Shown: positions 1-34,014 of the stretch, piece by piece
Layout of the letters: each line of letters begins with the position of its first letter
How positions within the stretch are numbered: the first letter of the stretch is position 1
IMG/VR virus record: IMGVR_UViG_3300033141_000787
Span: 1 to 56,193 of that record
Length of the DNA stretch: 56,193 nucleotides
Source of the DNA: a virus
Taxonomy: Duplodnaviria; Caudoviricetes
Reading direction: 5' to 3' (one strand)
Notes under the pieces: model-generated
Databases searched by the model: none
Told to the model about the DNA's origin: nothing
The model's input: the letters and a program-made list of their open reading frames with translations, nothing else
Translations under genes and position numbers: made by a program

Positions 1-114
1 GATGCAGTATCATGTACTCAGACCACTAAATCTGTAAGTAGGTGGATTCCTGATACAGACTTGGATACAGAGTATGAATACGTTGTATACGTTGATGATA
101 TTGAGGTAGGACGT
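1..114. repeat. Terminal direct repeat (circular assembly overlap), copy 1
   Basis: 1-114 is identical to 56080-56193 and lies inside a continuous reading frame. Confidence 0.97.
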
Positions 115-3100
115 ATACGAGGCTCTGACGCTACCGAGATATTCCGCCATGACGTAGCTATATATGGCGACCTTACTGTATCTGGTACTGTCAATGGTGA
201 TTCAATAAGTATACCTTACATAGGTTCAGCTACTTATACCGATTTACATGATTGGTGGAATACTATTCAATCAGCAGGCAAACTTACCGATGGTACAATA
301 ACAGACAACGGAGATGGCTCTGTTACTGTTGCGGCCGGTACCGGTATAATCAAAACTACTGATAGCGATGTAGGCGAGAGTAAGTTTTTCAACTGGGCAG
401 AGAACACGAATGTAGCATTGACTGATAACTCAATTAATTACATTTACGTAGAGTACAATTCGGGAAGTCCTCAAATTGCAGTATCGACTTCACTTCCTAC
501 TGACAATAATACAAACATCTTACTTGGTATGGTTTACAGAGAAGGCACAGACTTGCATATTACTACGGCAGGACAGTATATTGCTAACTATGCCAAGAAC
601 GACTTCTGGAAAGATATTGACGTTAATGGTAAGCTGCAGTGGTCGTCTGGCATAAAACCCTCTGAGAGTGGAACACGTTATCTTGCCTTGACGGAAGGTA
701 AAATATATGCAGGCTTGACACCTGTTACTTTTAATGCGTTTAATAGCTCTGCCACGGCAATAACAGGCTACTATTCCGACGGTGGAACTGGCTGGACTTC
801 AACATCTGTTAACCAGATTGATAACCAGTACTATGATGATGGTTCGGGCACACTTGCCTCGTTGACTAATAACAACTACACATGTAGATATATATACATT
901 GATAGTGATAATCATGTGTATATGGTCTATGGCACTTCTGAATATAATAAACTTGGCGATGCAATTGAGGAAGAACCGCCTGAGAGTATTCCCATCTTGT
1001 TATCCTCAATCGGAATGTTAGTTTCTAAGATTATTATAAAAGAAGGACAGACCAACTTTGAGCGGGTATATTCATACTTTGGTATAGATAGACCAGCCGG
1101 AACTGTTATCAATCATGATGAACTTGGTAATATACTTGGCTCTGGTGCTTATCATTTATCTGAAAGTGAGCATACCGAACTTACTGAATGGATGGATGAC
1201 GTTACCCTGTCAGACGGCGGGGAAGTTGACCTTGATAATAATTATATCACCTCTCTCCAGAATACCACAGATGCCGGAGCTGGGATAGTAGGGAATTACT
1301 ATTCGTTTGATGGGGTGGATGATTATGGGCAGATAGCGGATAATGATAATTTGGATATTACCGATGCAATTACGATTTCAGCGTGGGTAAAATTAGGCGA
1401 TATACAATTAGATGAAATAAGTGTTGTTGCTAAAAATAACGCCTATGCAATAGATATAAGAAAAAATGAAAATAAATTAAGGTCATTGGTTAAGACAGAT
1501 GGCACAAATGGATGGAATACTGACCACGATGTAACTGTTAATTGGCAAGCTAATAAATGGTATTATTTAACTTTTACTTATGACGGTAATACGGCAAGAG
1601 ATTATTTAAATGGCGTAGAAATAAATAATTATACCGTTACTGGAAATATTAATGTTAATACTAATAATTTATGGTTAGGTGGTAATGAGGTATATGATTT
1701 TTATCTTAATGGCTCAATCTCTGATGTCCGTATCTATAACACCGCCCTCACCGCAGACGAAGTAAAAGCACTTTATAGTGGTGCTCCTGTTCCTTATAAG
1801 TATGTAGGAGCGAGTCAGACAGAGTTGGTTACTGATGGAGACATGGAGACTAACCCAACAAGTAATTGGATAGCTGCCGGTTCACATACACTTGCAGTAG
1901 AAACTACTATTGTACGTGGAGGTTCACAGTCATTAAAAGTAACAAATGATGGTGCTACTGCTGGGTTGGTGACACAGAGTATATCATACACTCCATTAAA
2001 ATATTACCGGTTGACTGGTTGGGTATATGTCCCGTCTGATTGGGATGGTGGGAATATATATCTAAATCTGAACCCCGATGCAGATATTAAATATACAGTT
2101 AAATTCCAATATCTACAGGGAACGAGTCCCACTGATACTTGGGTTTATATGGAAACAATAGTGGCAACTACCCAGAGCAGTGTATTAAGAGTTAGAACTT
2201 CATCTATTCCGACTGCTGGCAAAATAGTATACCTTGATGATATATCAGTAAAACAAATCGGCTGTGTCCTCAACCTTAACAAATCCAAAACATCAGACAC
2301 ATGGTACGATGAAAGCGGCAACAACTTAGACGCTACCATGCACGGAGCTACCTTAGTAAGTAATAACAAGTATGGTTATTATGAGAGAGGGCTTAAAATT
2401 GGTGGTAATTTACAAGTGGATGGTACTGGTGATAGTTATGTGATGGGGAATTTGGGGATAGGGACGGCGAGCCCAGGGGTAAAATTAGATGTGCAAGGTG
2501 GTGATATTCAAACTTCTGGAGATTTTATAGGAGGGTGGAATATTAAGATGACAGGTTCTGATAGGTATCTTTATTCTTCTACTGATGGAAGTAATTTTAA
2601 TATTCGTACTACGGGAACTGGAAAATTGATGCTTCAACCAACATTAGGAACAGGAGATGTGGACTTTTTTAATGGCAAAGTAGTTATAAAAAATACTGGC
2701 AACGTCGGCATCGGAACGACAAGCCCAGATACTAAACTCCACATAGATGGCGACATCAAGCAAGAAGTCCATACCTCCGATGTCTCCAATCCTCCCACAG
2801 ATGCAGAACTTGACGCTTTATTTACAAGTCCTTCAAGTAAGGGAGCCGGATGGACAGCTTACGTAAAAGACTCAGATACCGACAGTATGTATCAGATTAC
2901 CTCAGACGGTACTAACTGGCAGATAGTAGCTATGACACCAGCAGATACAGCAAGTAGTTCATCTACGGCACTATCAAACGTAGCATTTGCTGAAGGCAAC
3001 TATTTCCCATCTAACATGGTCTTAATACGTAATGAGGAAATGGATAATACCTTAGATACTGCAACAGGTACTGAAATTACTGTAAGCAGTATAGATACAG

Positions 3101-4359
3101 CAAATGATACTATAACACTTAGTTGGCTACCATATATACCAAGTATATGGAGCCCTGGCACTGGTGCAAAGTGGGGTCTTATTAACTTAGAGAATACTAC
3201 AGGAAGTGCAGACCCAGCTATTGATGGTGATTATGATGAAATATTTATAATAGATAGTGGTACTTATTCTACCAAAACACTCAACTATACAGTAGCTAAC
3301 GGAGCAGACACTAACTGGTCAGTAGGGGATAAGGTAGCCTTATATAATCCATACCGCTCTAATATAGAGTTTTATGATGGTAACCCAGTATTCTTGAATG
3401 GTTCTGGTATATACTCAGTATATGCTAATCCTGGTGATGGCTTCTACCATAGTGATGGCTCTTATGTGCTTCTTGTTAATGGTTCTACAGGCACTAACGT
3501 AGGGGAAGTTGGAGCATACAAATCAGATGGTGTTGATTGGTTTACTTGGACACAGGTAAATAGTGGTGCAGCCATATTTAATAAAAGTGGCACTGCATCT
3601 GACTGGCGTGAAGATAAACTGGTAAATGCTCAAGTAATTAAACTCCCAACCGAAAACAGGTATATAGGCTATTTTTCAGGATATAGTAGCACTGATAGTA
3701 AATGGCGTATAGGCTATATTAAGTTTGATGAAGACTTTACATCTGATAGTATAGAATACTCAAGCAGTGAGATTATTGATAGTTCAGCAAGCTCAAACGG
3801 CTTACAGCTTGGCTCAGTAATCTATTATGGCGGTAAGTGGCGTATGATGTATATAGATAGAGTAGGTGGTACTGTTACTGATTGGATGGTAAAAGAAGCA
3901 TTCTCAGATACCCCTGAAGGCCCATTCGCATATTCAAGCACCATTGTTACCGGAGGTAGTACTAACGATGGTATATACTACTCATCACACTCAGACGGAA
4001 CGTATTACTTTATATGGAAGGGCAGACTATATGCTTGGATAGCTGGAACTTCTCGATACTTGGCATCAGGTACAAGAGCTGATAGAATATGGGGATTATG
4101 GTATCTTGATGAATTGAGCGGTACTGATACATGGGTAGAGATAAAATACAATCCGGTATTCATTAACCCAATTCAAGGTAATCATACTTGGGCTGGTGTT
4201 GATGACTGGATGTCAGACCACATGGGTCGTCAGCTCTCTATGGCAGTAAACAACTATGATGGTAAATTATATATATTCTTTAACGCAGGTAGTGGTACTG
4301 ATACATACCAGGGAGGTATAGCCACAATGGATTTACCTGCATTACTTGAAAACTATTAA
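1..4359 (+). CDS. Multidomain tail fibre/spike (LamG, CBM-like domain, fibre repeats, C-terminal glycoside hydrolase-like beta-propeller); true start at 55981 across the junction, about 1485 aa
   Basis: LamG motifs FDGVDDY...ISAWVK...ISDVRIYNTALTADEV; CBM-like GDME...SLKV...YLDDISVKQ; GNLGIGTASP/GNVGIGTTSP repeats; propeller-like WRIGY, SDTPEGPF, NPVF. Frame is open from ATG 55981. Confidence 0.8.
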   Translation, partial: DAVSCTQTTKSVSRWIPDTDLDTEYEYVVYVDDIEVGRIRGSDATEIFRHDVAIYGDLTVSGTVNGDSISIPYIGSATYTDLHDWWNTIQSAGKLTDGTITDNGDGSVTVAAGTGIIKTTDSDVGESKFFNWAENTNVALTDNSINYIYVEYNSGSPQIAVSTSLPTDNNTNILLGMVYREGTDLHITTAGQYIANYAKNDFWKDIDVNGKLQWSSGIKPSESGTRYLALTEGKIYAGLTPVTFNAFNSSATAITGYYSDGGTGWTSTSVNQIDNQYYDDGSGTLASLTNNNYTCRYIYIDSDNHVYMVYGTSEYNKLGDAIEEEPPESIPILLSSIGMLVSKIIIKEGQTNFERVYSYFGIDRPAGTVINHDELGNILGSGAYHLSESEHTELTEWMDDVTLSDGGEVDLDNNYITSLQNTTDAGAGIVGNYYSFDGVDDYGQIADNDNLDITDAITISAWVKLGDIQLDEISVVAKNNAYAIDIRKNENKLRSLVKTDGTNGWNTDHDVTVNWQANKWYYLTFTYDGNTARDYLNGVEINNYTVTGNINVNTNNLWLGGNEVYDFYLNGSISDVRIYNTALTADEVKALYSGAPVPYKYVGASQTELVTDGDMETNPTSNWIAAGSHTLAVETTIVRGGSQSLKVTNDGATAGLVTQSISYTPLKYYRLTGWVYVPSDWDGGNIYLNLNPDADIKYTVKFQYLQGTSPTDTWVYMETIVATTQSSVLRVRTSSIPTAGKIVYLDDISVKQIGCVLNLNKSKTSDTWYDESGNNLDATMHGATLVSNNKYGYYERGLKIGGNLQVDGTGDSYVMGNLGIGTASPGVKLDVQGGDIQTSGDFIGGWNIKMTGSDRYLYSSTDGSNFNIRTTGTGKLMLQPTLGTGDVDFFNGKVVIKNTGNVGIGTTSPDTKLHIDGDIKQEVHTSDVSNPPTDAELDALFTSPSSKGAGWTAYVKDSDTDSMYQITSDGTNWQIVAMTPADTASSSSTALSNVAFAEGNYFPSNMVLIRNEEMDNTLDTATGTEITVSSIDTANDTITLSWLPYIPSIWSPGTGAKWGLINLENTTGSADPAIDGDYDEIFIIDSGTYSTKTLNYTVANGADTNWSVGDKVALYNPYRSNIEFYDGNPVFLNGSGIYSVYANPGDGFYHSDGSYVLLVNGSTGTNVGEVGAYKSDGVDWFTWTQVNSGAAIFNKSGTASDWREDKLVNAQVIKLPTENRYIGYFSGYSSTDSKWRIGYIKFDEDFTSDSIEYSSSEIIDSSASSNGLQLGSVIYYGGKWRMMYIDRVGGTVTDWMVKEAFSDTPEGPFAYSSTIVTGGSTNDGIYYSSHSDGTYYFIWKGRLYAWIAGTSRYLASGTRADRIWGLWYLDELSGTDTWVEIKYNPVFINPIQGNHTWAGVDDWMSDHMGRQLSMAVNNYDGKLYIFFNAGSGTDTYQGGIATMDLPALLENY

Positions 4360-12187: not shown

Positions 12188-15100
12188 ATGCCTGAGAGCT
12201 ACGTAGATATAGATAGACTATTAGAGCATACTATAATAGGGTACGACTATCCTAATAAGAAGTATGTGCCTGATAGGTCATTCTTTGTAGACGCTTTTAA
12301 TACAGTTGCAGCAGGCGGACTTGATGCTGTGGAAATGGTAGCTAAAGCTTTATCTTCTGCTGGTATACCTGCTGAGGGCGTAGTTAATTCAATACGTCAA
12401 TATAAAGCTTCAGCTACTTGGGACGACCCTTCAAGACAGTATTATGAAGATGGTGCAAGACGTACTGTAATGGATATATTACGCTCTGCGTCTCAGAGTC
12501 TTGGTACTCGGAGTATTGGTATACTTGCCGGTGGACTTGCAGGATTGGTTACAGCAGGCCCTGCTGGTATGGTAGGTGGAGCTGCTATAGGAGCTACCGC
12601 TACAGGAGGCCCTGTATACGGCTTATCTACCTATTATGATTTTATGGAAGACGCCAAGAATCATGGAATACCTATAGATACAGTACGTAATGATGCTATC
12701 CTTGCTGCCGTTACTGAGGGTGGTTTGGAAATGGCTTCAGACCTTATATTTGGTAGGTTGATGGGTCTATTTGGCAAAAGCGGGAAAGAGGCTACTAAAG
12801 GATTTATGAAGTCATTAACTGAAAAGACAACAGTATCACAGTTTACTAAGAAGTTCTTACTGTCCTATGCCAAGGTTGCATCAGAGGAAATACCTACCGA
12901 GTTAGCACAAGATTACTTTGGCTATCATATTAGAAAGAATGCAGGATTGCCGGTAACTACTGACCTTGCCCAGAGCCTTAAACAGACCGCCGTAGTTACC
13001 GCTGGTACATCAGCCTTGTTTGCTCTTGGTGGTCTTGGTGGTTTAGAGCTTAGGAAGAAATTTATAAAGTCTCAGATTGATGCAGCGGCGGTACTTAGTG
13101 AGATAGCAGATAATCCAGAGGCGGAACTTACAGAGCAGCAAGTAACTAAACTACAAGAAGTTAATCAGGTACGGGCATTAGCAATAGATGAGTATAATAA
13201 GTATAAGGAAGACCAGGAAAAAGGCCGTAGAACTTTAGTTGACTTAATAGCTATAGCAAGTAGGTTAGGACCTGTACTGCTTTGGGACTTAAAGTATAGA
13301 CCGGTTAACGCAAAGGGAGAGCCTGTATTAGGATTAGCCTTTAAAGGACGTGGAGTTGCCACATTACCACACCCTCTTGTAGTAGGTCATGAGATTGGCC
13401 ATAGGATGGTTGACCATAAACTGCTTGATTACAATAAGCCTGGAATACCTAAAAATGAACTTATACGTGTAAGCAGACTACACAGGAAGTCGGTATATAG
13501 AGGTATGTATCCAGATGCACCTCAGTCAGCTATTAATAAAGAAGTTGATAAACGTGCATATAAAGGACAGGAAGACCAGGACTCAATCAGTGAAGCTATC
13601 GGAGATTTTGTAGGGCTGTACCTATATATGCCTGAGATAGTCAGTAAGATGGCTCCAAGAACATCTGAAGTATTAGGGCCTCAAATTGACAGAATAACAC
13701 GCATTCCTCAAGACTATGCTGAAACCAAGGCTATGATTACTGAATATAGTGCACGCATAGCCAGAAGGTTTGTCGGCTTTGCCATGGAGGTTAAAGCCAA
13801 AAAGCAGGCAGATAAGCCATTTGCTGCACCTGAAGAACCTACCTCGAAAGACGTATTTAATGAGGAGCTTAATAATAGGGTAGGCCCTCAAGCGTTCGCT
13901 GAGGATATAGCTGATGAATTTGATGCTGTATCTAAAATCATTCAGGACGAGTTAGGAATAACTGATGATGCTAAATTAGGCTTCATGGCCAATACCATTA
14001 TAAAGCGTGGAGGATTACCAGAAGAAGCTACCGCACGTAAAAGATATTTACAGACTGTCGAATGGGCTGCAAGTAAGGTAATAAAAACTCAGAAGAAAGG
14101 TATTACTAATCTGTTTAATCCGTGGGTATCTATACGATATGGCTTTGCTGACCTTGAAGCTAAGACTGGTGTAGTTGGTTTACATAAGGACGCCAAGAGC
14201 TTTATGTATAAAACCGGGCAGTCCCATTATAATAGCAGTACACGTATAGATAGAATGTTCAGAGATAATGATATTGACCCCAGTAAGTTAGCTGATGACC
14301 CAGAGACTATTAAACAGGTAGTAGATTGGCTTTACGAGAAGGACGATAAGAAACGTGAAGCTATAACTTCAAAAATGAGCCCTTACGCATTAAAGGTAGC
14401 CAAGGTAGTACATAATGAATTGCAAGGTGAAACAGCTACTAATATAAGAATATCAAGGTGGCTTATGTGGCGTAGTATACCACGTAAGACTCTTGAGGAA
14501 TATCTGCAATTATATCATAGAGTTACAAGTAATAAAGCCTCACGTGAAGATATAAAACGCTATGGTAAGCTCCAAGGATATTTTGAGTCAATACTTCCTC
14601 CTGACTTAAAACCGGAATACGGAGTAGCTACAAGAGGGGCAAACTCAGTAATTATAAACCGTGGACTTACCTTAGAGGAGGCTAAAAAGGAAGCTGGAAA
14701 AGATAAGAAAGCATATAAGGTAGTACAGCTAACATCAGGACTTGAGGAATTATTAGACGCCGATGCTGTATATGAATCAGAGGGTATGGAAGGTTTACGT
14801 AAGTTCCTAAGTACTAAAACTTGGGGTACTCGTAAACATTACTATATGAGTAGTATAGAGCTTGATAATGCGTTAGAGCAGTTTGTTGGTAATATAACCT
14901 CGCCAGGAGTCTTAGGTAAGCATACAACGCCATCAGCACGTCCTGGAGCAAAACTTAGGGAATCTCATACAAGAACTACAGAAGGAATACCTAAAGACGC
15001 TGAAACATTCTTACCTGACCTGTACAACCATATTCAGCGTGCTGCTATGATAGCAGATGTTGGTATTGATATGTTGAAGCTGTCTGACAAGTTTATGACA

Positions 15101-16507
15101 GCAATGCCTAAAACCAGAGATGCTAACAGTCAAATACGTGTATTTAAAAGATTTGTGATGAATGCTATGGGGCTTGATGAATCTGCTCCGGTAGCTGTAA
15201 GAACAGTTGAAAAGATTAATAGATTCTTCTGGCAGACTTACCCACTTGCAATAAGCCGTATATTATGGTACTCATTCAGAAACTTGGCACAGAATATGAT
15301 TGCCGGCGGACAGTTAAATATCGGGGAGGCTGTCAAGTCAGGTCTCACAATAGCTACGTCTGGGCCAAGCGACTTGTTAAGAAAGCACTTCTCACTCAAC
15401 TTTAAATCTACTATATCACAGAAATTACCTATCTTCAGGCACTTTATGATGATGGAACATGATGTAGTGGATAAAAAATATAAACGGAAGATGACAAGAA
15501 TACTCGATACTTTAGGGCAAGCTATACCATTCTCAGATGAAGTTAACAGAATGCTATTGTTCCCTATAGTACATGATATAGCTGAGCGTAATATCAATGC
15601 TTACAAAGAGGGTAAGATTAATTTTGAACAACTGGCTAAACGTGCCGGACTTAATAACTTACACCCACAAGAGCTATTAGATATACAGGATTTACTTAAA
15701 CAAGGTAATTACGAAGATGCCATATTTGAGATAGCTGCTACCAAGGTAGCTAATACCCACTTCAGATATAGAGTAGCTGAACGTTCAGGAGTAGAACAGC
15801 ATAGAACTGCAAGACCATTAACAGGATTATATAACTGGCCTCGTGGACTTGTTGAATCTCTGTACTACAATGGAATAAAGCCATTTGTTGTAGGTATGGA
15901 AACTAAAAATTATAATGTGGCATTCTCAGGATTAACAGCACTTACTAAAGTACTTGGCGGTATGTTTGTAGCACGTGAACTGCTCAAAAAGATATTAGGT
16001 AAAAAAGATGAATATGGAGCATACGATACCTTTAATACTATATTCGGATACGCTCCTGGTAGTGCCGGACTCGGATTAGCAATGAGTGTATTTGAAGATT
16101 TCAAACGTGCACATGATTACGCTCGTGATGGTAATATAGATAAGGCATTCTTTACCTTATTAGATAGAGCAGCTTACCACTTGCCTTTAATAGCTGATAC
16201 TATTAATGCTTATGAAGCCTTACATGATAGGCGTGGAGTTAAGATGATGAGGCTTCTTGAAGCTAAAATTTATAAAGCCACTAAAGAGCCCGGTAAATCA
16301 GCTAAGAGGACTGCCGTAGAGAAATGGCAGCATATACTATTTGGTACTGAGGAAATACCACAATCTGAGGAGGCCAGGAAGCTGGCCAGAGAAAGAGAAA
16401 AAGCATTAAGGAAATTATATAGACAGTTAGGCATAAAATCTCCACTACTGAGTGCTGAAAATGCACTTGATATAGATAAATTGCTTAGACGATATAGTGT
16501 TATATAG
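12188..16507 (+). CDS. Large internal virion/DNA-ejection protein with a HExxH zincin-like motif
   Basis: 1439 aa; Gly/Ala-rich hydrophobic hairpin near the N-terminus; VGHEIGH and downstream SEAIGDF; last gene of the late arm. Confidence 0.6.
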   Translation: MPESYVDIDRLLEHTIIGYDYPNKKYVPDRSFFVDAFNTVAAGGLDAVEMVAKALSSAGIPAEGVVNSIRQYKASATWDDPSRQYYEDGARRTVMDILRSASQSLGTRSIGILAGGLAGLVTAGPAGMVGGAAIGATATGGPVYGLSTYYDFMEDAKNHGIPIDTVRNDAILAAVTEGGLEMASDLIFGRLMGLFGKSGKEATKGFMKSLTEKTTVSQFTKKFLLSYAKVASEEIPTELAQDYFGYHIRKNAGLPVTTDLAQSLKQTAVVTAGTSALFALGGLGGLELRKKFIKSQIDAAAVLSEIADNPEAELTEQQVTKLQEVNQVRALAIDEYNKYKEDQEKGRRTLVDLIAIASRLGPVLLWDLKYRPVNAKGEPVLGLAFKGRGVATLPHPLVVGHEIGHRMVDHKLLDYNKPGIPKNELIRVSRLHRKSVYRGMYPDAPQSAINKEVDKRAYKGQEDQDSISEAIGDFVGLYLYMPEIVSKMAPRTSEVLGPQIDRITRIPQDYAETKAMITEYSARIARRFVGFAMEVKAKKQADKPFAAPEEPTSKDVFNEELNNRVGPQAFAEDIADEFDAVSKIIQDELGITDDAKLGFMANTIIKRGGLPEEATARKRYLQTVEWAASKVIKTQKKGITNLFNPWVSIRYGFADLEAKTGVVGLHKDAKSFMYKTGQSHYNSSTRIDRMFRDNDIDPSKLADDPETIKQVVDWLYEKDDKKREAITSKMSPYALKVAKVVHNELQGETATNIRISRWLMWRSIPRKTLEEYLQLYHRVTSNKASREDIKRYGKLQGYFESILPPDLKPEYGVATRGANSVIINRGLTLEEAKKEAGKDKKAYKVVQLTSGLEELLDADAVYESEGMEGLRKFLSTKTWGTRKHYYMSSIELDNALEQFVGNITSPGVLGKHTTPSARPGAKLRESHTRTTEGIPKDAETFLPDLYNHIQRAAMIADVGIDMLKLSDKFMTAMPKTRDANSQIRVFKRFVMNAMGLDESAPVAVRTVEKINRFFWQTYPLAISRILWYSFRNLAQNMIAGGQLNIGEAVKSGLTIATSGPSDLLRKHFSLNFKSTISQKLPIFRHFMMMEHDVVDKKYKRKMTRILDTLGQAIPFSDEVNRMLLFPIVHDIAERNINAYKEGKINFEQLAKRAGLNNLHPQELLDIQDLLKQGNYEDAIFEIAATKVANTHFRYRVAERSGVEQHRTARPLTGLYNWPRGLVESLYYNGIKPFVVGMETKNYNVAFSGLTALTKVLGGMFVARELLKKILGKKDEYGAYDTFNTIFGYAPGSAGLGLAMSVFEDFKRAHDYARDGNIDKAFFTLLDRAAYHLPLIADTINAYEALHDRRGVKMMRLLEAKIYKATKEPGKSAKRTAVEKWQHILFGTEEIPQSEEARKLAREREKALRKLYRQLGIKSPLLSAENALDIDKLLRRYSVI

Positions 16508-22017: not shown

Positions 22018-22207
22018 ATTTGCTTAATTCCTTGCGTACATAACCGCAAGCTCTCACCAAATTACTGATGCGGTTAATGTGTTCTAATACATCTTTTGGA
22101 TGAACACCGGAAAGTTTGCTGTTATGTTCTGTAAGTAGTGCTATAGATGTTAATAATAGGTCTACAAGTTTTTCTTTTGATAGTTTCATTAAGTTGTCAC
22201 TCTGCAT
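21992..22207 (-). CDS. Hypothetical protein, paralog of 21778-22017
   Basis: GGAGG RBS; shared pattern with its neighbour. Confidence 0.6.
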   Translation of the reverse strand: MQSDNLMKLSKEKLVDLLLTSIALLTEHNSKLSGVHPKDVLEHINRISNLVRACGYVRKELSKYGKEPDNE

Positions 22208-30925: not shown

Positions 30926-31106
30926 TCTCTGTTCTTATAACTTTTAACCTTTGACCACATTCACGACATCTAAATATCTCAACAGTCCGGCCAATATTAT
31001 CCCCTTCAATTGTTGTCTTACAGGTCGGGCAAGTATATATGGTATATATATGTGATGCTTCTTTATAAATTATTTTTACTGGCTTTGCTTTCTTGGTTAC
31101 CTTCAT
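30903..31106 (-). CDS. Zinc-ribbon protein
   Basis: CPTC...CRECGQ; AAGGAG RBS. Confidence 0.65.
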   Translation of the reverse strand: MKVTKKAKPVKIIYKEASHIYTIYTCPTCKTTIEGDNIGRTVEIFRCRECGQRLKVIRTENERAKGL

Positions 31107-31131
31107 ATTACTTAACTCCTTTCTTTACTAT

Positions 31132-31259
31132 AGGGGCAACGGGCTACTATTTGGGAATTACTATCAATTCCCCAAAGTCATAGGGCTTTTATATTGCGGT
31201 AGCCCGACACACTCGATAGCGGTATGTAGCATAACCGTCAATTTTTACACGTTGCCCCT
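31132..31259 (-). ncRNA. Structured element A (multibranch, closed by an acceptor-like stem)
   Basis: AGGGGCAACG/CGTTGCCCCT outer stem; GGGCTAC/GTAGCCC and TTTGGGAATT/AATTCCCCAAA inner stems. Confidence 0.6.
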
Positions 31260-31513
31260 GTTTCTGTTATTATCAACTCAACAACATCAAGTTTATCCAT
31301 AATCCTATTTATCCAACTCCTTAGGTTTGTTTTGCCACTTATAACTTTTGCGTTTTCTTCCGTGCCAGTTAAAACTATTCCTGAAGTTCCTTTGTTTGAA
31401 GAATAAAATCCCGTTGTCGGCAATATCTGAGTATTAAATTCCTCGCCTTCTCCGGCAAAATATAAACCATTAATTTTTATTATGTATTTCTTCATTTTAT
31501 TCACCGCCATCAT
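31238..31513 (-). CDS. Hypothetical protein flanked by 14-bp direct repeats
   Basis: TATAGGGGCAACGG at 31129 and 31527. Confidence 0.6.
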   Translation of the reverse strand: MMAVNKMKKYIIKINGLYFAGEGEEFNTQILPTTGFYSSNKGTSGIVLTGTEENAKVISGKTNLRSWINRIMDKLDVVELIITETGATCKN

Positions 31514-31526
31514 TGTTCTTCTTTGT

Positions 31527-31558
31527 TATAGGGGCAACGGCAAAGACTCGAATTTTGC
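31527..31558 (-). repeat. tRNA-like 3' fragment B (T-arm plus acceptor 3' strand)
   Basis: - strand GCAAAA-TTCGAGT-CTTTGC-CGTTGCCCCTATA parallels the 3' end of element C. Confidence 0.65.
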
Positions 31559-31599
31559 AAAACAAGTATTCGCAATTAAGAGAAATATAATCATTCGCT

Positions 31600-31893
31600 T
31601 CATTTCTCTTCCCCCTTCCTATTAAACCACATTATAAAAATTATACAACATGCCGCATGCGCCAAATGTGGTAATCCAGATTCATTATCTTTTATTTCAC
31701 CGGATTGATACGCTTTTATATGTCTCATCATTGCAGCAAAATATCTGTTCTCCGCATTCGGAACATGTTGCCATTGATTGGGAGCATATTTTATTGCGCC
31801 AAAACTTAATACTTTTACAATCTCCTCCACCTGTTCAAGTGGGAGCAAATCCCACCTCGGTTTACCATTATCGCTTTTTCGTCCCTTTTTCAT
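31600..31893 (-). CDS. dATP/dGTP diphosphohydrolase domain protein (DUF5664-like)
   Basis: GRKSDNGKPRWDLLP, FGAIKY..NQW, RYFAAMMRH, DNESGLPHLAHA. Confidence 0.85.
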   Translation of the reverse strand: MKKGRKSDNGKPRWDLLPLEQVEEIVKVLSFGAIKYAPNQWQHVPNAENRYFAAMMRHIKAYQSGEIKDNESGLPHLAHAACCIIFIMWFNRKGEEK

Positions 31894-32019
31894 ATTTCTC
31901 TCCTATCTTAATTGCTCATAACTGCTCAATTAATTCTTTTCCCATTTCTATTAGTCTCTCCTTTTATTTTTTTTTTTATAAACCAACTAATTCCACCAAA
32001 TAATATTAGTTGGAAATAG

Positions 32020-32271
32020 TTACCCCATTATCCTGAATCTAACCACATTCTTAATTATCAACTCTCTACCATCTTCTAATAAAATAGAAGCATCTGTTTT
32101 ACCATGCCCACAACAACTTGCTTCTGTTTTGATGTTCGCAGCATTCAAAGCAGCAACTATATCTGCAATACAGAAATCAATATATCGTACTCGCCCGTTA
32201 ATCGGCATAGGGGTTTGACATTTATAAGTTCCAACGCCCGAACATTTTTTAAGTCTTATATTCTCTGACAT
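32020..32271 (-). CDS. Hypothetical protein with D.CIADIV.ALN...T.ASCCGH motif
   Basis: GAGGAG RBS directly after an attC-like site. Confidence 0.65.
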   Translation of the reverse strand: MSENIRLKKCSGVGTYKCQTPMPINGRVRYIDFCIADIVAALNAANIKTEASCCGHGKTDASILLEDGRELIIKNVVRFRIMG

Positions 32272-32285
32272 AGATACTCCTCAAA

Positions 32286-32363
32286 AATTATAACAAAACG
32301 TTGCATCCGACTGTGCCACGCTGCGCTTGCACAGTAGGCAAGCTTAATTTTAGCCCGTTAAAT
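32286..32363 (+). mobile_element. attC-like site (degenerate)
   Basis: TAAC-AAAAC-GTTGCATCCGAC-TGTGC..GCACAG-TAGGCAAGCTTAAT...GTTAAAT. Confidence 0.55.
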
Positions 32364-32574
32364 TATCCCTCAACATTATTAATCGTTCTTCCAATTTGCT
32401 GTCGTCCTGTAAAATAAAATCAATAGCATCTAATATTTCACCCCTTAATAACCAATCACCCTTTATGCTTTTCACGCAACCATAGTTGCCAGCGGTATAT
32501 CTACAAGGGGCTAAATCATTCAAGCCGACCGCATCAGCGGCGCAGCTCTTTGTGTCTTCATTGGTTGTAGCCAT
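32350..32574 (-). CDS. Hypothetical protein starting inside an attC-like site
   Basis: The N-terminal AVGLNDL is encoded by the attC arm. Confidence 0.5.
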   Translation of the reverse strand: MATTNEDTKSCAADAVGLNDLAPCRYTAGNYGCVKSIKGDWLLRGEILDAIDFILQDDSKLEERLIMLRDNLTG

Positions 32575-32628
32575 ATCATTTGCCCTTTCATAGTTTACTC
32601 TGGCGGCGGCTTAATTCCGTCGTTATAA
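32509..32628 (+). mobile_element. attC-like site
   Basis: ATT[C]AAGCCG[A]CCGC pairs with GCGGCGGCTTAAT, leaving two extrahelical bases; then TCCGTC-GTTATAA. The R'' box is damaged. Confidence 0.7.
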
Positions 32629-32997
32629 TTTTGGTTCAAAGTAAACACAAGTATCATCTTCTTTTTTATTTACTACAGAATCTGGAATAGCAATACATTT
32701 TCCAGTTGAACCGTTACCACTCCATCCATTAGAACAAAAAACACCATAATCATGTCTGAAATAAATACAATTCTTGCATTTTCTTTCTAATGGCTTTTCG
32801 TGACAAAGCACATCAGGCCAACTTAATATTTTCTTTAAACGATTACCAGCTTCTGCTGCTTCTTTTGCATTTTTTCTTGTTTTACCGTGAGTTGCGATAT
32901 GTTGTTTACCACTCTCATCAACACCAAAAATTACAATATGTGTTAAATTTAAATTTTTACGTATTTCCTTGATTTGCGAGATTTTTATTTTCATCAT
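32623..32997 (-). CDS. Hypothetical Cys-motif protein whose stop codon overlaps the attC core
   Basis: AGGAGG RBS; CKNC...C...C; ends TAA-C. Confidence 0.65.
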   Translation of the reverse strand: MMKIKISQIKEIRKNLNLTHIVIFGVDESGKQHIATHGKTRKNAKEAAEAGNRLKKILSWPDVLCHEKPLERKCKNCIYFRHDYGVFCSNGWSGNGSTGKCIAIPDSVVNKKEDDTCVYFEPKL

Positions 32998-33043
32998 ATC
33001 CTCCTGTTTTAACTGTATTTTTCAATTTCTTTATCAAAGCTGT

Positions 33044-33165
33044 GAGGGCAACGGCAAGGACTTGAACCTTGCATATTAACCTCTCAAACCCGCCGCACGG
33101 GAATAATGATGGAGTCGAACCATCTTGCGGTTTCAAAGTGTCTGCCGTTCCGCCACGCTGCCCCC
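33044..33165 (-). ncRNA. tRNA-like RNA C (non-canonical, no standard anticodon arm)
   Basis: GGGGGCAGCG/CGTTGCCCTC stem, Leu-like D region TGGCGGAACGGCAGAC, T-arm GCAAGG-TTCAAGT-CCTTGC, extra T-loop hairpin GATGG-TTCGACT-CCATC. Confidence 0.65.
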
Positions 33166-33167
33166 AA

Positions 33168-33722
33168 TTACTTACCCAAACGTCCTTTTAACCATTTCAA
33201 ATTTCTCAGTGCAGCATTGTACGCTGTGATGTAACTATTAAAATTTTCTGGCATGCTATCATCCTGCGCATCAATCGCACATAGTATCTTAAAATTTTCT
33301 ACAGCAAAACTTGGTGATGGTATTATAAATGTTTTCACTACGATGTCAGTATCGCCTATCATTTGTATCCAACTCCTGTGAAAAAATACTGGCGTGATAA
33401 TAGGTAATGTATCAGTTTGGCCATTCGGTATTATCATGGTGATATGTTCCGTATCATTTGGCATTCCTGATTCCAGATGGAAACCAAGTTTTTTAATGAC
33501 AGTCCCATCCTTACTTTCTACAGGCTGTACTGCCTGTTCTTCCATTATCAGTATACCATAGTCAGGTATTATTTTGTGTGGTCTGTATTTGTGGTATTGG
33601 TATATTGCATGAAAGCCAACATTCCCGGATAATTTAATTACCAATCGCTTCTTTGCTAACAGATACTTACCATATGTATGGAGGATGATTGGTGATATTT
33701 TCTCTTCAATCCTCAAGCACAT
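33168..33722 (-). CDS. Hypothetical protein
   Basis: AAGGAGG RBS; MCL start and GFH motif seen in phage small proteins. Confidence 0.6.
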   Translation of the reverse strand: MCLRIEEKISPIILHTYGKYLLAKKRLVIKLSGNVGFHAIYQYHKYRPHKIIPDYGILIMEEQAVQPVESKDGTVIKKLGFHLESGMPNDTEHITMIIPNGQTDTLPIITPVFFHRSWIQMIGDTDIVVKTFIIPSPSFAVENFKILCAIDAQDDSMPENFNSYITAYNAALRNLKWLKGRLGK

Positions 33723-33780
33723 TTTGTTCCTCCTTATTATTATTAAGCCTGATTAATCTTTCTTAGTTGGAAGAAGACAC

Positions 33781-33978
33781 TCAATGTTTAGCTTTATCTA
33801 TTTTAACTGTATAAATCCAAAATCTTGAAAGCCCATTAAGGTTTGTCTTCATTTCAATATTAATTATTTTCTCGTTATCCCCAACAAGTTCAGTAATTGT
33901 CTTGTTGAGAATTTTGTCTATAGTATTAAGGTCACATTCTAACCAGCTTTCGCTCCTAATAATGTTTACTTCTTGCAT
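33781..33978 (-). CDS. Hypothetical protein
   Basis: GAGGAG RBS. Confidence 0.6.
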   Translation of the reverse strand: MQEVNIIRSESWLECDLNTIDKILNKTITELVGDNEKIINIEMKTNLNGLSRFWIYTVKIDKAKH

Positions 33979-34014
33979 TATTATCTCCTCTTTTTAATTC
34001 CTGCCCCCGAATAA

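Follow-up and report, generated by a model that had tools for sequence, protein, structure and literature searches.

We analyzed an integron-like locus in the IMG/VR virus record IMGVR_UViG_3300033141_000787, a metagenome-derived, complete record of 56,193 bp with direct terminal repeats and a GC content of 37.4%, the whole of which is referred to here as the window. The locus comprises two intergenic stretches, site 1 and site 2, on either side of a small gene of 74 amino acids, ORF74 (ORF, open reading frame). Sequence and covariance-model comparisons identify site 2 (32504-32632, + strand) as a genuine homologue of attC, predicted to derive from integron attC DNA of the aadA-cassette sequence family. 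We tentatively favor reading the locus as what is left, after decay, of integron gene-cassette DNA in the accessory early region of a virulent-type phage, a reading to which we give somewhat less than an even chance.

Both arms of an aadA-type attC are present in site 2, at 32516-32529 (TCATTCAAGCCGAC) and at 32603-32628 (GCGGCGGCTTAATT, a 5-nt spacer and GTTATAA), in agreement with the attC pattern that an earlier reading of the sequence alone (the original prediction) had placed at 32518-32628. A pattern-free blastn search of 32500-32640 against 72,556 plasmids matched 434 plasmid records and, among the matches listed, 20 of 20 lay at the aadA16 3' end, where the attC of this cassette is located. 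This reference attC was taken from plasmid NZ_CP023943.1 (L002) and locally aligned with 3742 phage windows on both strands. Site 2 ranked first with a score of 24 (30/34 positions identical), the mean being 6.95 and the standard deviation 1.33; the right arm of site 2 ranked second (16) and site 1 third (13), the background maximum being 12. In addition, a pattern made from the shared blocks was searched in IMG/VR and gave 104 matches in 98 loci, of which, after de-duplication, 56 belonged to one attC family with the consensus yCTAAC-AATTC-ATTCAAGCCGAC-loop-GCGGCTTAATTC-AGGC-GTTAgrc. Site 2 agreed with this consensus at 31 exact positions, which fell in three blocks and in the correct order. 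Many of the family loci were cassette arrays, and their GC contents ranged from 0.43 to 0.66. As a separate observation, several IMG/VR contigs filed as viral (L086, L082, L019, L068, L071, L033 and others) carried long cassette arrays of up to ~20 attC matches in <10 kb with GC contents of 0.55-0.65, and these contigs look like bacterial chromosomal integrons or integron-bearing elements, not phages.

The original prediction had called for a check with the attC covariance model of IntegronFinder. In its place, two models of our own were run, and site 2 was matched by both. R1 was built from the 56 family sites, and R2 from 143 model-collected attCs of 59-130 nt. On the 98 loci, R1 gave 272 matches, with the top strands at 60-93 bits versus 21-33 bits for the reverse strands of the same sites. 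On the phage genome, the sole match of unfiltered R1 at E<0.1 was a local one at 32516-32621 (+; 26.2 bits, E 2e-4), and the sole match of R2 at E<0.1 in 56 kb was full length, at 32504-32632 (+; 27.7 bits, E 1.6e-4), with no R2 match on the - strand at site 2. The runners-up after site 2 reached 13.2-15.7 bits across the two models, the next R2 match having 13.2 bits and an E-value of 0.73, and neither R1 nor R2 found a further attC-like site in the phage genome besides site 2. Among controls outside the build set, R2 gave 28.2 bits for the dfrA27 attC, which is of a different sequence type, and 75.4 bits for the aadA16 attC. On Tetrasphaera phage TJE1, it found exactly three sites (30.1, 31.3 and 45.9 bits), all on the gene strand, and the fourth row, at 19.6 bits, was the reverse strand of the best site; this number equals the three attCs given in the legend of Fig. 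2 of Qi et al. (2023; PMC9892861). The score of site 2 was thus near that of the dfrA27 attC and those of the weaker TJE1 sites. On the whole genome of the related phage G001, the best R2 score was 15.6 bits (E 0.19). Apart from their use as controls, we observed that the TJE1 (L110) sites lie at 239-297, 1011-1079 and 1457-1523 (+), just after the annotated terminator and across the circular junction.

In the R2 alignment, site 2 consists of an R'' region without AAC (32506-32515), the left arm L'' (32516-32529), a variable loop of ~73 nt (32530-32602), the right arm L' (32603-32616), a spacer (32617-32621) and the R' box GTTATAA (32622-32628), all on the + strand. The L box formed 13 of its 15 pairs, and all 13 were canonical. 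The two bases C32521 and A32528 were unpaired in the model alignment; they correspond to the extrahelical G and T that had been proposed on the bottom strand. The R' box, with the G|TT crossover point at the 3' end, has the GTT of the GTTRRRY core and fits it at two of the four RRRY positions, and it lies 6 nt after L', as in aadA16. The R'' box carries a 3-nt deletion, comprising the C of AAC and two spacer bases, and three of the seven R-box pairs are non-standard; no RYYYAAC core able to pair with R' was found, and without AAC the R stem therefore cannot form. An R box is needed for integron integrase action; thus, without an R stem, site 2 is probably no longer an integrase substrate on its own. 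A damaged end had been proposed for both sites, which held for the R'' of site 2, whereas site 1 was not confirmed as an attC. As aligned to R2, site 2 is 129 nt long, compared with 59-130 nt for family members and within the 57-141 nt range of attC sites, and its GC content is 0.478. Within it, GCGGCGCAGCT at 32539-32549 and GCGGCGGCTT at 32603-32612 could equally well be an L' duplication from an insertion into a short attC or, for the former, plain loop as R2 reads it.

Compared with aadA-type attCs (aadA16 in NZ_CP023943.1 and the environmental family), site 2 is alike in its arms, ATTCAAGCCGAC on the left and GCGGCTTAATTC on the right, in both extrahelical positions, in the length of the right spacer and in the kept G|TTA. 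It is unlike them in its loop of ~73 nt versus 3-8 nt (~30 nt in the family member L036), in the R'' box without AAC, in a left spacer that is 3 nt shorter, and in the surrounding DNA, which has 37% GC versus 43-66% for the family loci. The adjacent gene also differs, being on the opposite strand and starting inside the loop. In particular, the top strand of site 2 is + and all ORFs here are on the - strand, as had been noted from the sequence, so that the cassette-like co-orientation of gene and attC is lacking; in the aadA16 and TJE1 controls, gene and attC were on the same strand.

ORF74 (32350-32574, -) is a real small gene, and its start lies in the loop of site 2, as was originally proposed. 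On the - strand, the loop carries a ribosome-binding site (RBS)-like AAAGGG and the ATG (32572-32574, within 32530-32602), and site 2 encodes the RBS, the ATG and residues 1-15. No Pfam or PHROGs family was found for ORF74, and a word-index search returned only ORF74 itself. A full HMMER scan of 1.84 billion representatives gave six matches at E<=1e-3, self included, among them two metagenomic homologues, P0002 (100 aa, 54% identity) and P0006 (81 aa, 48%). The core common to these homologues extends from about residue 16-19 to residue 72, and residues 1-15 are not shared. The remaining matches (P0003-P0005) were long repeat proteins (e.g., 401 aa with ~66-aa units) with several stretches against ORF74 residues 6-36, and they were set aside as apparent translated DNA repeats.

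Under the favored reading, site 2 would have descended from an attC of the aadA-cassette family and would since have lost its R'' box, but retained the stem of L'' and L', the two extrahelical bases, the spacer on the right and the G|TT in R'. Its long loop would now serve as the beginning of ORF74, read from the opposite strand, with the RBS, the ATG and the initial 15 codons; we read this start as a by-product of the junction rather than a designed module. As to how the cassette DNA arrived, we infer a route in which, in an integron-bearing host, the integrase would have put a cassette into the G|TT of the site 1 palindrome; such an insertion would leave site 1 with an R'' that is a perfect complement of the TTATAATTTT now located after the site 2 G.

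Site 1 (32284-32363, +) is an attC-like palindrome. It comprises an R''-like TTATAAC (32288-32294) followed by the spacer AAAAC, GTTGCATCCGAC (32300-32311), a 7-bp hairpin ACTGTGC/GCACAGT, AGCTTAATT (32341-32349) with CGTTA six bases further on, and GTTAAAT (32357-32363), all on the + strand. The last of these lies within the ORF74 coding sequence at codons N71-L72-T73, which are common to the homologues. The left end of site 1, TAAC-N5-NTTNNANCCGAC (of the xTTxxAxCCGAC type), occurs once in the window versus 0.02 expected. The right-end motif GCTTAATT-N3-7-CGTTA occurs twice in the window, only at sites 1 and 2, 267 nt apart on the same strand, and in 0/100 shuffles; it is absent in G001 and TJE1. 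Taken alone, GCTTAATT with at most one mismatch had 87 matches versus 87.2 expected in the genome, and its other exact copies, at 22022, 22256 and 36105, were not attC-like. The site 1 arms next to the R boxes do not pair, and the hairpin is in another register. TTATAAC pairs perfectly with the R' of site 2, versus 5/7 positions with its own GTTAAAT. Site 1 is either an attC of this family at a far later stage of decay or a palindrome of the phage whose ends are attC-like; as a partner of site 2 it is doubtful. Of the two attC-like sites in the original prediction, site 2 was upheld by blastn, local alignment, R1 and R2, whereas site 1 shared only end motifs.

The two sites are also connected by an 11-bp inverted repeat, whose left arm is AAAATTATAAC (32284-32294) and whose right arm is GTTATAATTTT (32622-32632), within which lie the site 2 R' and, on the - strand, the stop codon that ends the ORF at 32623-32997 (-). 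The arms are complementary at 11/11 positions, as had been claimed for the sequences at 32284 and 32622, and are located exactly at R'' of site 1 and R' of site 2, so that they extend TAAC and GTTA exactly. In the whole genome, 11-bp perfect inverted pairs within 400 nt were uncommon and numbered 19 with overlaps, at ~12 separate places, which corresponds to ~0.1 per 350 nt. Integrase insertion at the G|TT of a palindromic site would leave the arrangement seen with AAAATTATAAC and GTTATAATTTT. Both proposed junctions read CG|TTA, and after in silico removal of 32358-32622 the remainder formed a single hairpin with an 11-bp outer stem and a z of ~-3.5 against mononucleotide shuffles. It is conceivable, although we regard it as unlikely, that the locus is the footprint of an integrase-made insertion, in which a phage palindrome (AAAATTATAAC as R'', the hairpin and G|TTATAATTTT) was the landing site and a host integrase inserted a 265-bp cassette (32358-32622), whose two sides are now flanked by the R-box halves.

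Several results weigh against an origin from integron cassette DNA or against parts of it. The blastn match to the aadA16 attC, 88% over 33 nt with E=5, is weak taken alone. The seed pattern of R1 and R2 came in part from the sites in the phage window itself, and their E-values are rough. At site 1, neither model gave a match, the best alignment in 32265-32385 being a trivial one of 5.7 bits; therefore, only one attC in this locus is supported by the models. The folding energies of native sites 1 and 2 were ordinary compared with shuffles (z -0.76 to -1.34). The R'' that would be expected of an inserted cassette, complementary to TTAAAT at 32358-32363, is absent in site 2. The place where R'' is expected overlaps, together with the start of the left arm, the stretch 32505-32519, which encodes the conserved N19-D20 and L21-A22-P23 of ORF74; since these residues align with the homologues, this stretch may be gene sequence that replaced R'', or may never have been R''. 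The GC content of ORF74 codons 21-74 is 0.367 versus 0.374 for the phage, and since it is phage-like compared with the 0.43-0.66 of attC-family loci, gene and attC may differ in origin. Finally, no relatives of ORF74 were confirmed in scans of viral, genome and metagenome contigs, and a cassette-borne family is therefore only a possibility.

As an alternative to integrase action on phage DNA, illegitimate or homologous recombination could have brought in part of a cassette array from a bacterium (attC, cassette, attC), in which case both sites would be array attCs that have since decayed. The family-specific right-end motif at both sites, with its same-strand spacing and its absence from shuffles, is consistent with this, and illegitimate recombination is discussed as a route in section 3.4 of Qi et al. 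(PMC9892861). In addition, GCTTAAT..TTTAGCCC, the right part of site 1, complements GGGCTAAA..ATTCAAGC, the left part of site 2, as in consecutive attCs of an array; TTTAGCCC (32349-32356, overlapping the ORF74 stop codon) is complementary to GGGCTAAA (32508-32515) at 8/8 positions, which could be the R'(N-1)/R''(N) pairing of neighboring cassettes. However, 8-bp inverted pairs within 400 nt are common in the genome (714, or ~4.4 per 350 nt), and this complement is thus of little weight. An array fragment also leaves the 11/11 complement of site 1 R'' and site 2 R' unexplained, the composition of ORF74 is phage-like, and site 1 fails the models. We consider this origin improbable.

The original prediction had further suggested that the phage taps host integron recombination. 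A locus that is still active would be a working CALIN (clustered attC sites without an integron integrase) or SALIN (one attC site without an integron integrase), in which the integrase of an integron-bearing host loads and unloads cassettes during infection. Site 2 retains the L box, the extrahelical bases and G|TT, and an 11-bp R stem spanning the unit could arise by pairing of the site 1 R'' with the site 2 R'. In addition, Qi et al. tested six phage attCs, of which five were active and recombined with attI1 (PMC9892861, section 3.4). Against this, site 2 has no AAC and three non-standard pairs among its seven R pairs, there is no pairing between the site 2 L' and the L-like arm beside the site 1 R'', and the composite would be 349 nt, far above known attC lengths. 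The absence of an integron integrase, which had been noted from the sequence, was confirmed: a six-frame search of the phage gave 0 matches at E<=1 to the tyrosine recombinase family PF00589, with a control positive in 14/14 genomes, and 0 matches to the serine recombinase family PF00239. With no integrase, an R' in site 2 without its R'' partner and a site 1 that fails the models, we consider present-day tapping of host recombination quite unlikely.

It is very unlikely, in our view, that the sites are not integron-derived at all and are instead intergenic hairpins of the phage, terminators or regulatory elements, that resemble attC by chance or convergence. Like phage intrinsic terminators and intergenic hairpins, both sites have a GC-rich hairpin and a T-rich run between short genes; a terminator scan gave such a hairpin and T-run at 32325-32343 and at 32601-32625, and attCs themselves are regarded as weak terminators (PMC9892861, section 3.4). 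Such an explanation would also fit the E-value of 5 in blastn and the left arm that partly encodes the conserved N-D. However, these hairpins occur solely on the + strand, where they are antisense to all genes of the region, and no - strand hairpin with a U-run, as an operon terminator would have, was found at them; seven terminator-like sites occurred in the region versus 3.9 expected, and they are therefore not distinctive. The likeness to the attC family is sequence-specific and needless for a terminator: 31 exact consensus positions fall in three ordered blocks, and the model score is on par with real attCs. In addition, nothing similar was found in the relative phage G001.

A further suggestion of the original prediction, that attC sites have been domesticated as reusable translation-start modules, was built on the RBS and ATG of ORF74 within the loop of site 2. 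As a general device it was not supported, and we regard it as highly improbable: there is a single case, site 1 has no start codon, the genome has no other attC-like site, the 15 attC-encoded residues are absent from the two homologues, and the proposed search for other proteins with the ORF74 N-terminal motif gave only ORF74 itself in the word index. An assembly chimera, in which reads of an attC in a bacterial integron became part of the phage contig, is scarcely credible, even though the sequence was assembled from a metagenome and data of this kind are rich in the attC family, as the attC piece of ~110 nt lies between AT-rich phage-like ORFs, one reading frame continues through the junction, the stop codon of the upstream gene is inside R', and the ORF74 protein is on record from two contigs.

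We compared the locus with attC-bearing elements lacking an integrase. Qi et al. (2023) described 17 CALINs in phages, virulent ones included, and one phage with attCs in divergent directions (PMC9892861). Like the CALINs that they describe in the virulent Tetrasphaera phage TJE1, Pseudoalteromonas phage PH101 and also Polaribacter phage P12002L, the present phage carries attC among small accessory genes and has no integron integrase. TJE1 differs in having three model-supported attCs in gene direction, the present phage having one supported site, directed against the genes and with R'' lost. With only one of the two candidate sites passing the models, the locus is not a CALIN, which needs at least two attC sites within a few kb and no integrase; nor is it a complete integron, in which intI lies beside attC. 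One supported site fits a SALIN instead. According to Loot et al. (10.1101/2022.09.11.507474), IntI inserts cassettes at GWT sites outside integrons, where SALINs are defined as single cassettes at GWT/attG sites, and attCs so inserted can decay or be lost. Like a SALIN, the present locus has a single model-supported attC without an integrase nearby, and its right junction, G|TT, is followed by recipient-like AT-rich DNA; the decay after insertion ('domestication') that is proposed in that paper is also what we read here. SALINs are described there in bacterial genomes, whereas the target here would be an attC-like palindrome in a phage, and, unlike in a SALIN, the R'' of the inserted unit is mismatched to the left junction.

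Phage-borne attC clusters were already published in 2023, and this locus is a further case of attC in phages. Neither such clusters nor cassette insertions at places other than integrons are new to the literature, and the present view of integrons is therefore unchanged. With this locus, the few phages known to bear attC sites are joined by one that is uncultivated, low in GC and of the virulent type. Its site is connected by sequence with the attC family found in aadA cassettes, which are of clinical importance, and the locus illustrates how an attC loop in decay can become the 5' end of an opposite-strand gene. If the locus were indeed the footprint of an integrase-made insertion, lytic phages would be direct recipients and carriers in cassette exchange, phage palindromes would serve as secondary att sites, and integron integrases would act on phage DNA during infection, so that phages could move cassettes between hosts.

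The phage encodes a large terminase, a portal protein, a family A DNA polymerase, a primase-helicase and an exonuclease. Since it has no tyrosine or serine recombinase, it appears to be of the virulent type. No close cultured relatives were found by megablast of 31000-34000, and blastn of the locus against phages at a distant setting gave only chance-level matches of 26-35 nt. The terminase and DNA polymerase had <40% identity to the nearest in the phage collection, with distant relatives among cultured phages of many hosts. All genes from ~17 kb to ~43 kb are on the - strand. The only close relative, G001, has a primase 88% identical and is colinear on both sides of a segment at 31258-33046 (~1.8 kb), which holds both sites and has no counterpart in G001, where ~800 bp of unrelated DNA is found instead. 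Because this segment is replaced in a colinear genome, the locus sits within a variable accessory segment, which we place in the accessory early-gene region of a virulent-type phage.

Within the segment, ORF74 is followed by a downstream gene of 83 aa (32020-32271, -), whose RBS abuts the left arm of the inverted repeat, and preceded by an upstream gene of 124 aa (32623-32997, -), whose stop codon is the TTA inside the R' of site 2; both are of unassigned function, and no relatives were found via the 124-aa neighbor. ARAGORN found 0 tRNAs in the phage. Rfam gave 0 matches at the gathering score and, at E<=1 over 31400-33300, three weak matches, none of which was at either site.

Several further features were observed in and around this region. 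Flanking the variable segment that holds the attC homologue, the intergenic DNA carries tRNA-like elements at 33040-33170 (-) and 31529-31610 (-), and also at 13677-13810 of L003. In such an element, a long hairpin is enclosed by a stem resembling an acceptor (GGGCAGC/GTTGCCC), a stretch resembling a D-arm and two perfect T-arms, and a 28-nt direct repeat of its 3' part, 86% identical, lies at 31532-31559. The relative phage keeps the acceptor, D and T parts (90-97%) but differs in the sequence of the middle hairpin. ARAGORN made no tRNA calls for these elements in either phage, and Rfam gave only a weak match of 22 bits to the tRNA-like family mascRNA. The tRNA-like element near 33150 has the 10-mer GCAGCGTGGC in common with the site 1 loop; a single 10-mer is no evidence of a link. 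A 97-aa ORF (31600-31893, -) matches only the N-terminal domain of dATP/dGTP diphosphohydrolase (PF18909, 118.7 bits), the remainder of the enzyme being absent. Downstream of the 83-aa ORF, in the intergenic stretch 31966-32013, 11 consecutive T precede a perfect palindrome of 9 bp (CCAACTAAT/ATTAGTTGG), a candidate terminator or operator. Two ORFs of ~1,430-1,450 aa, at 1-4359 and 12188-16507 (+), belong to the structural half of the genome.

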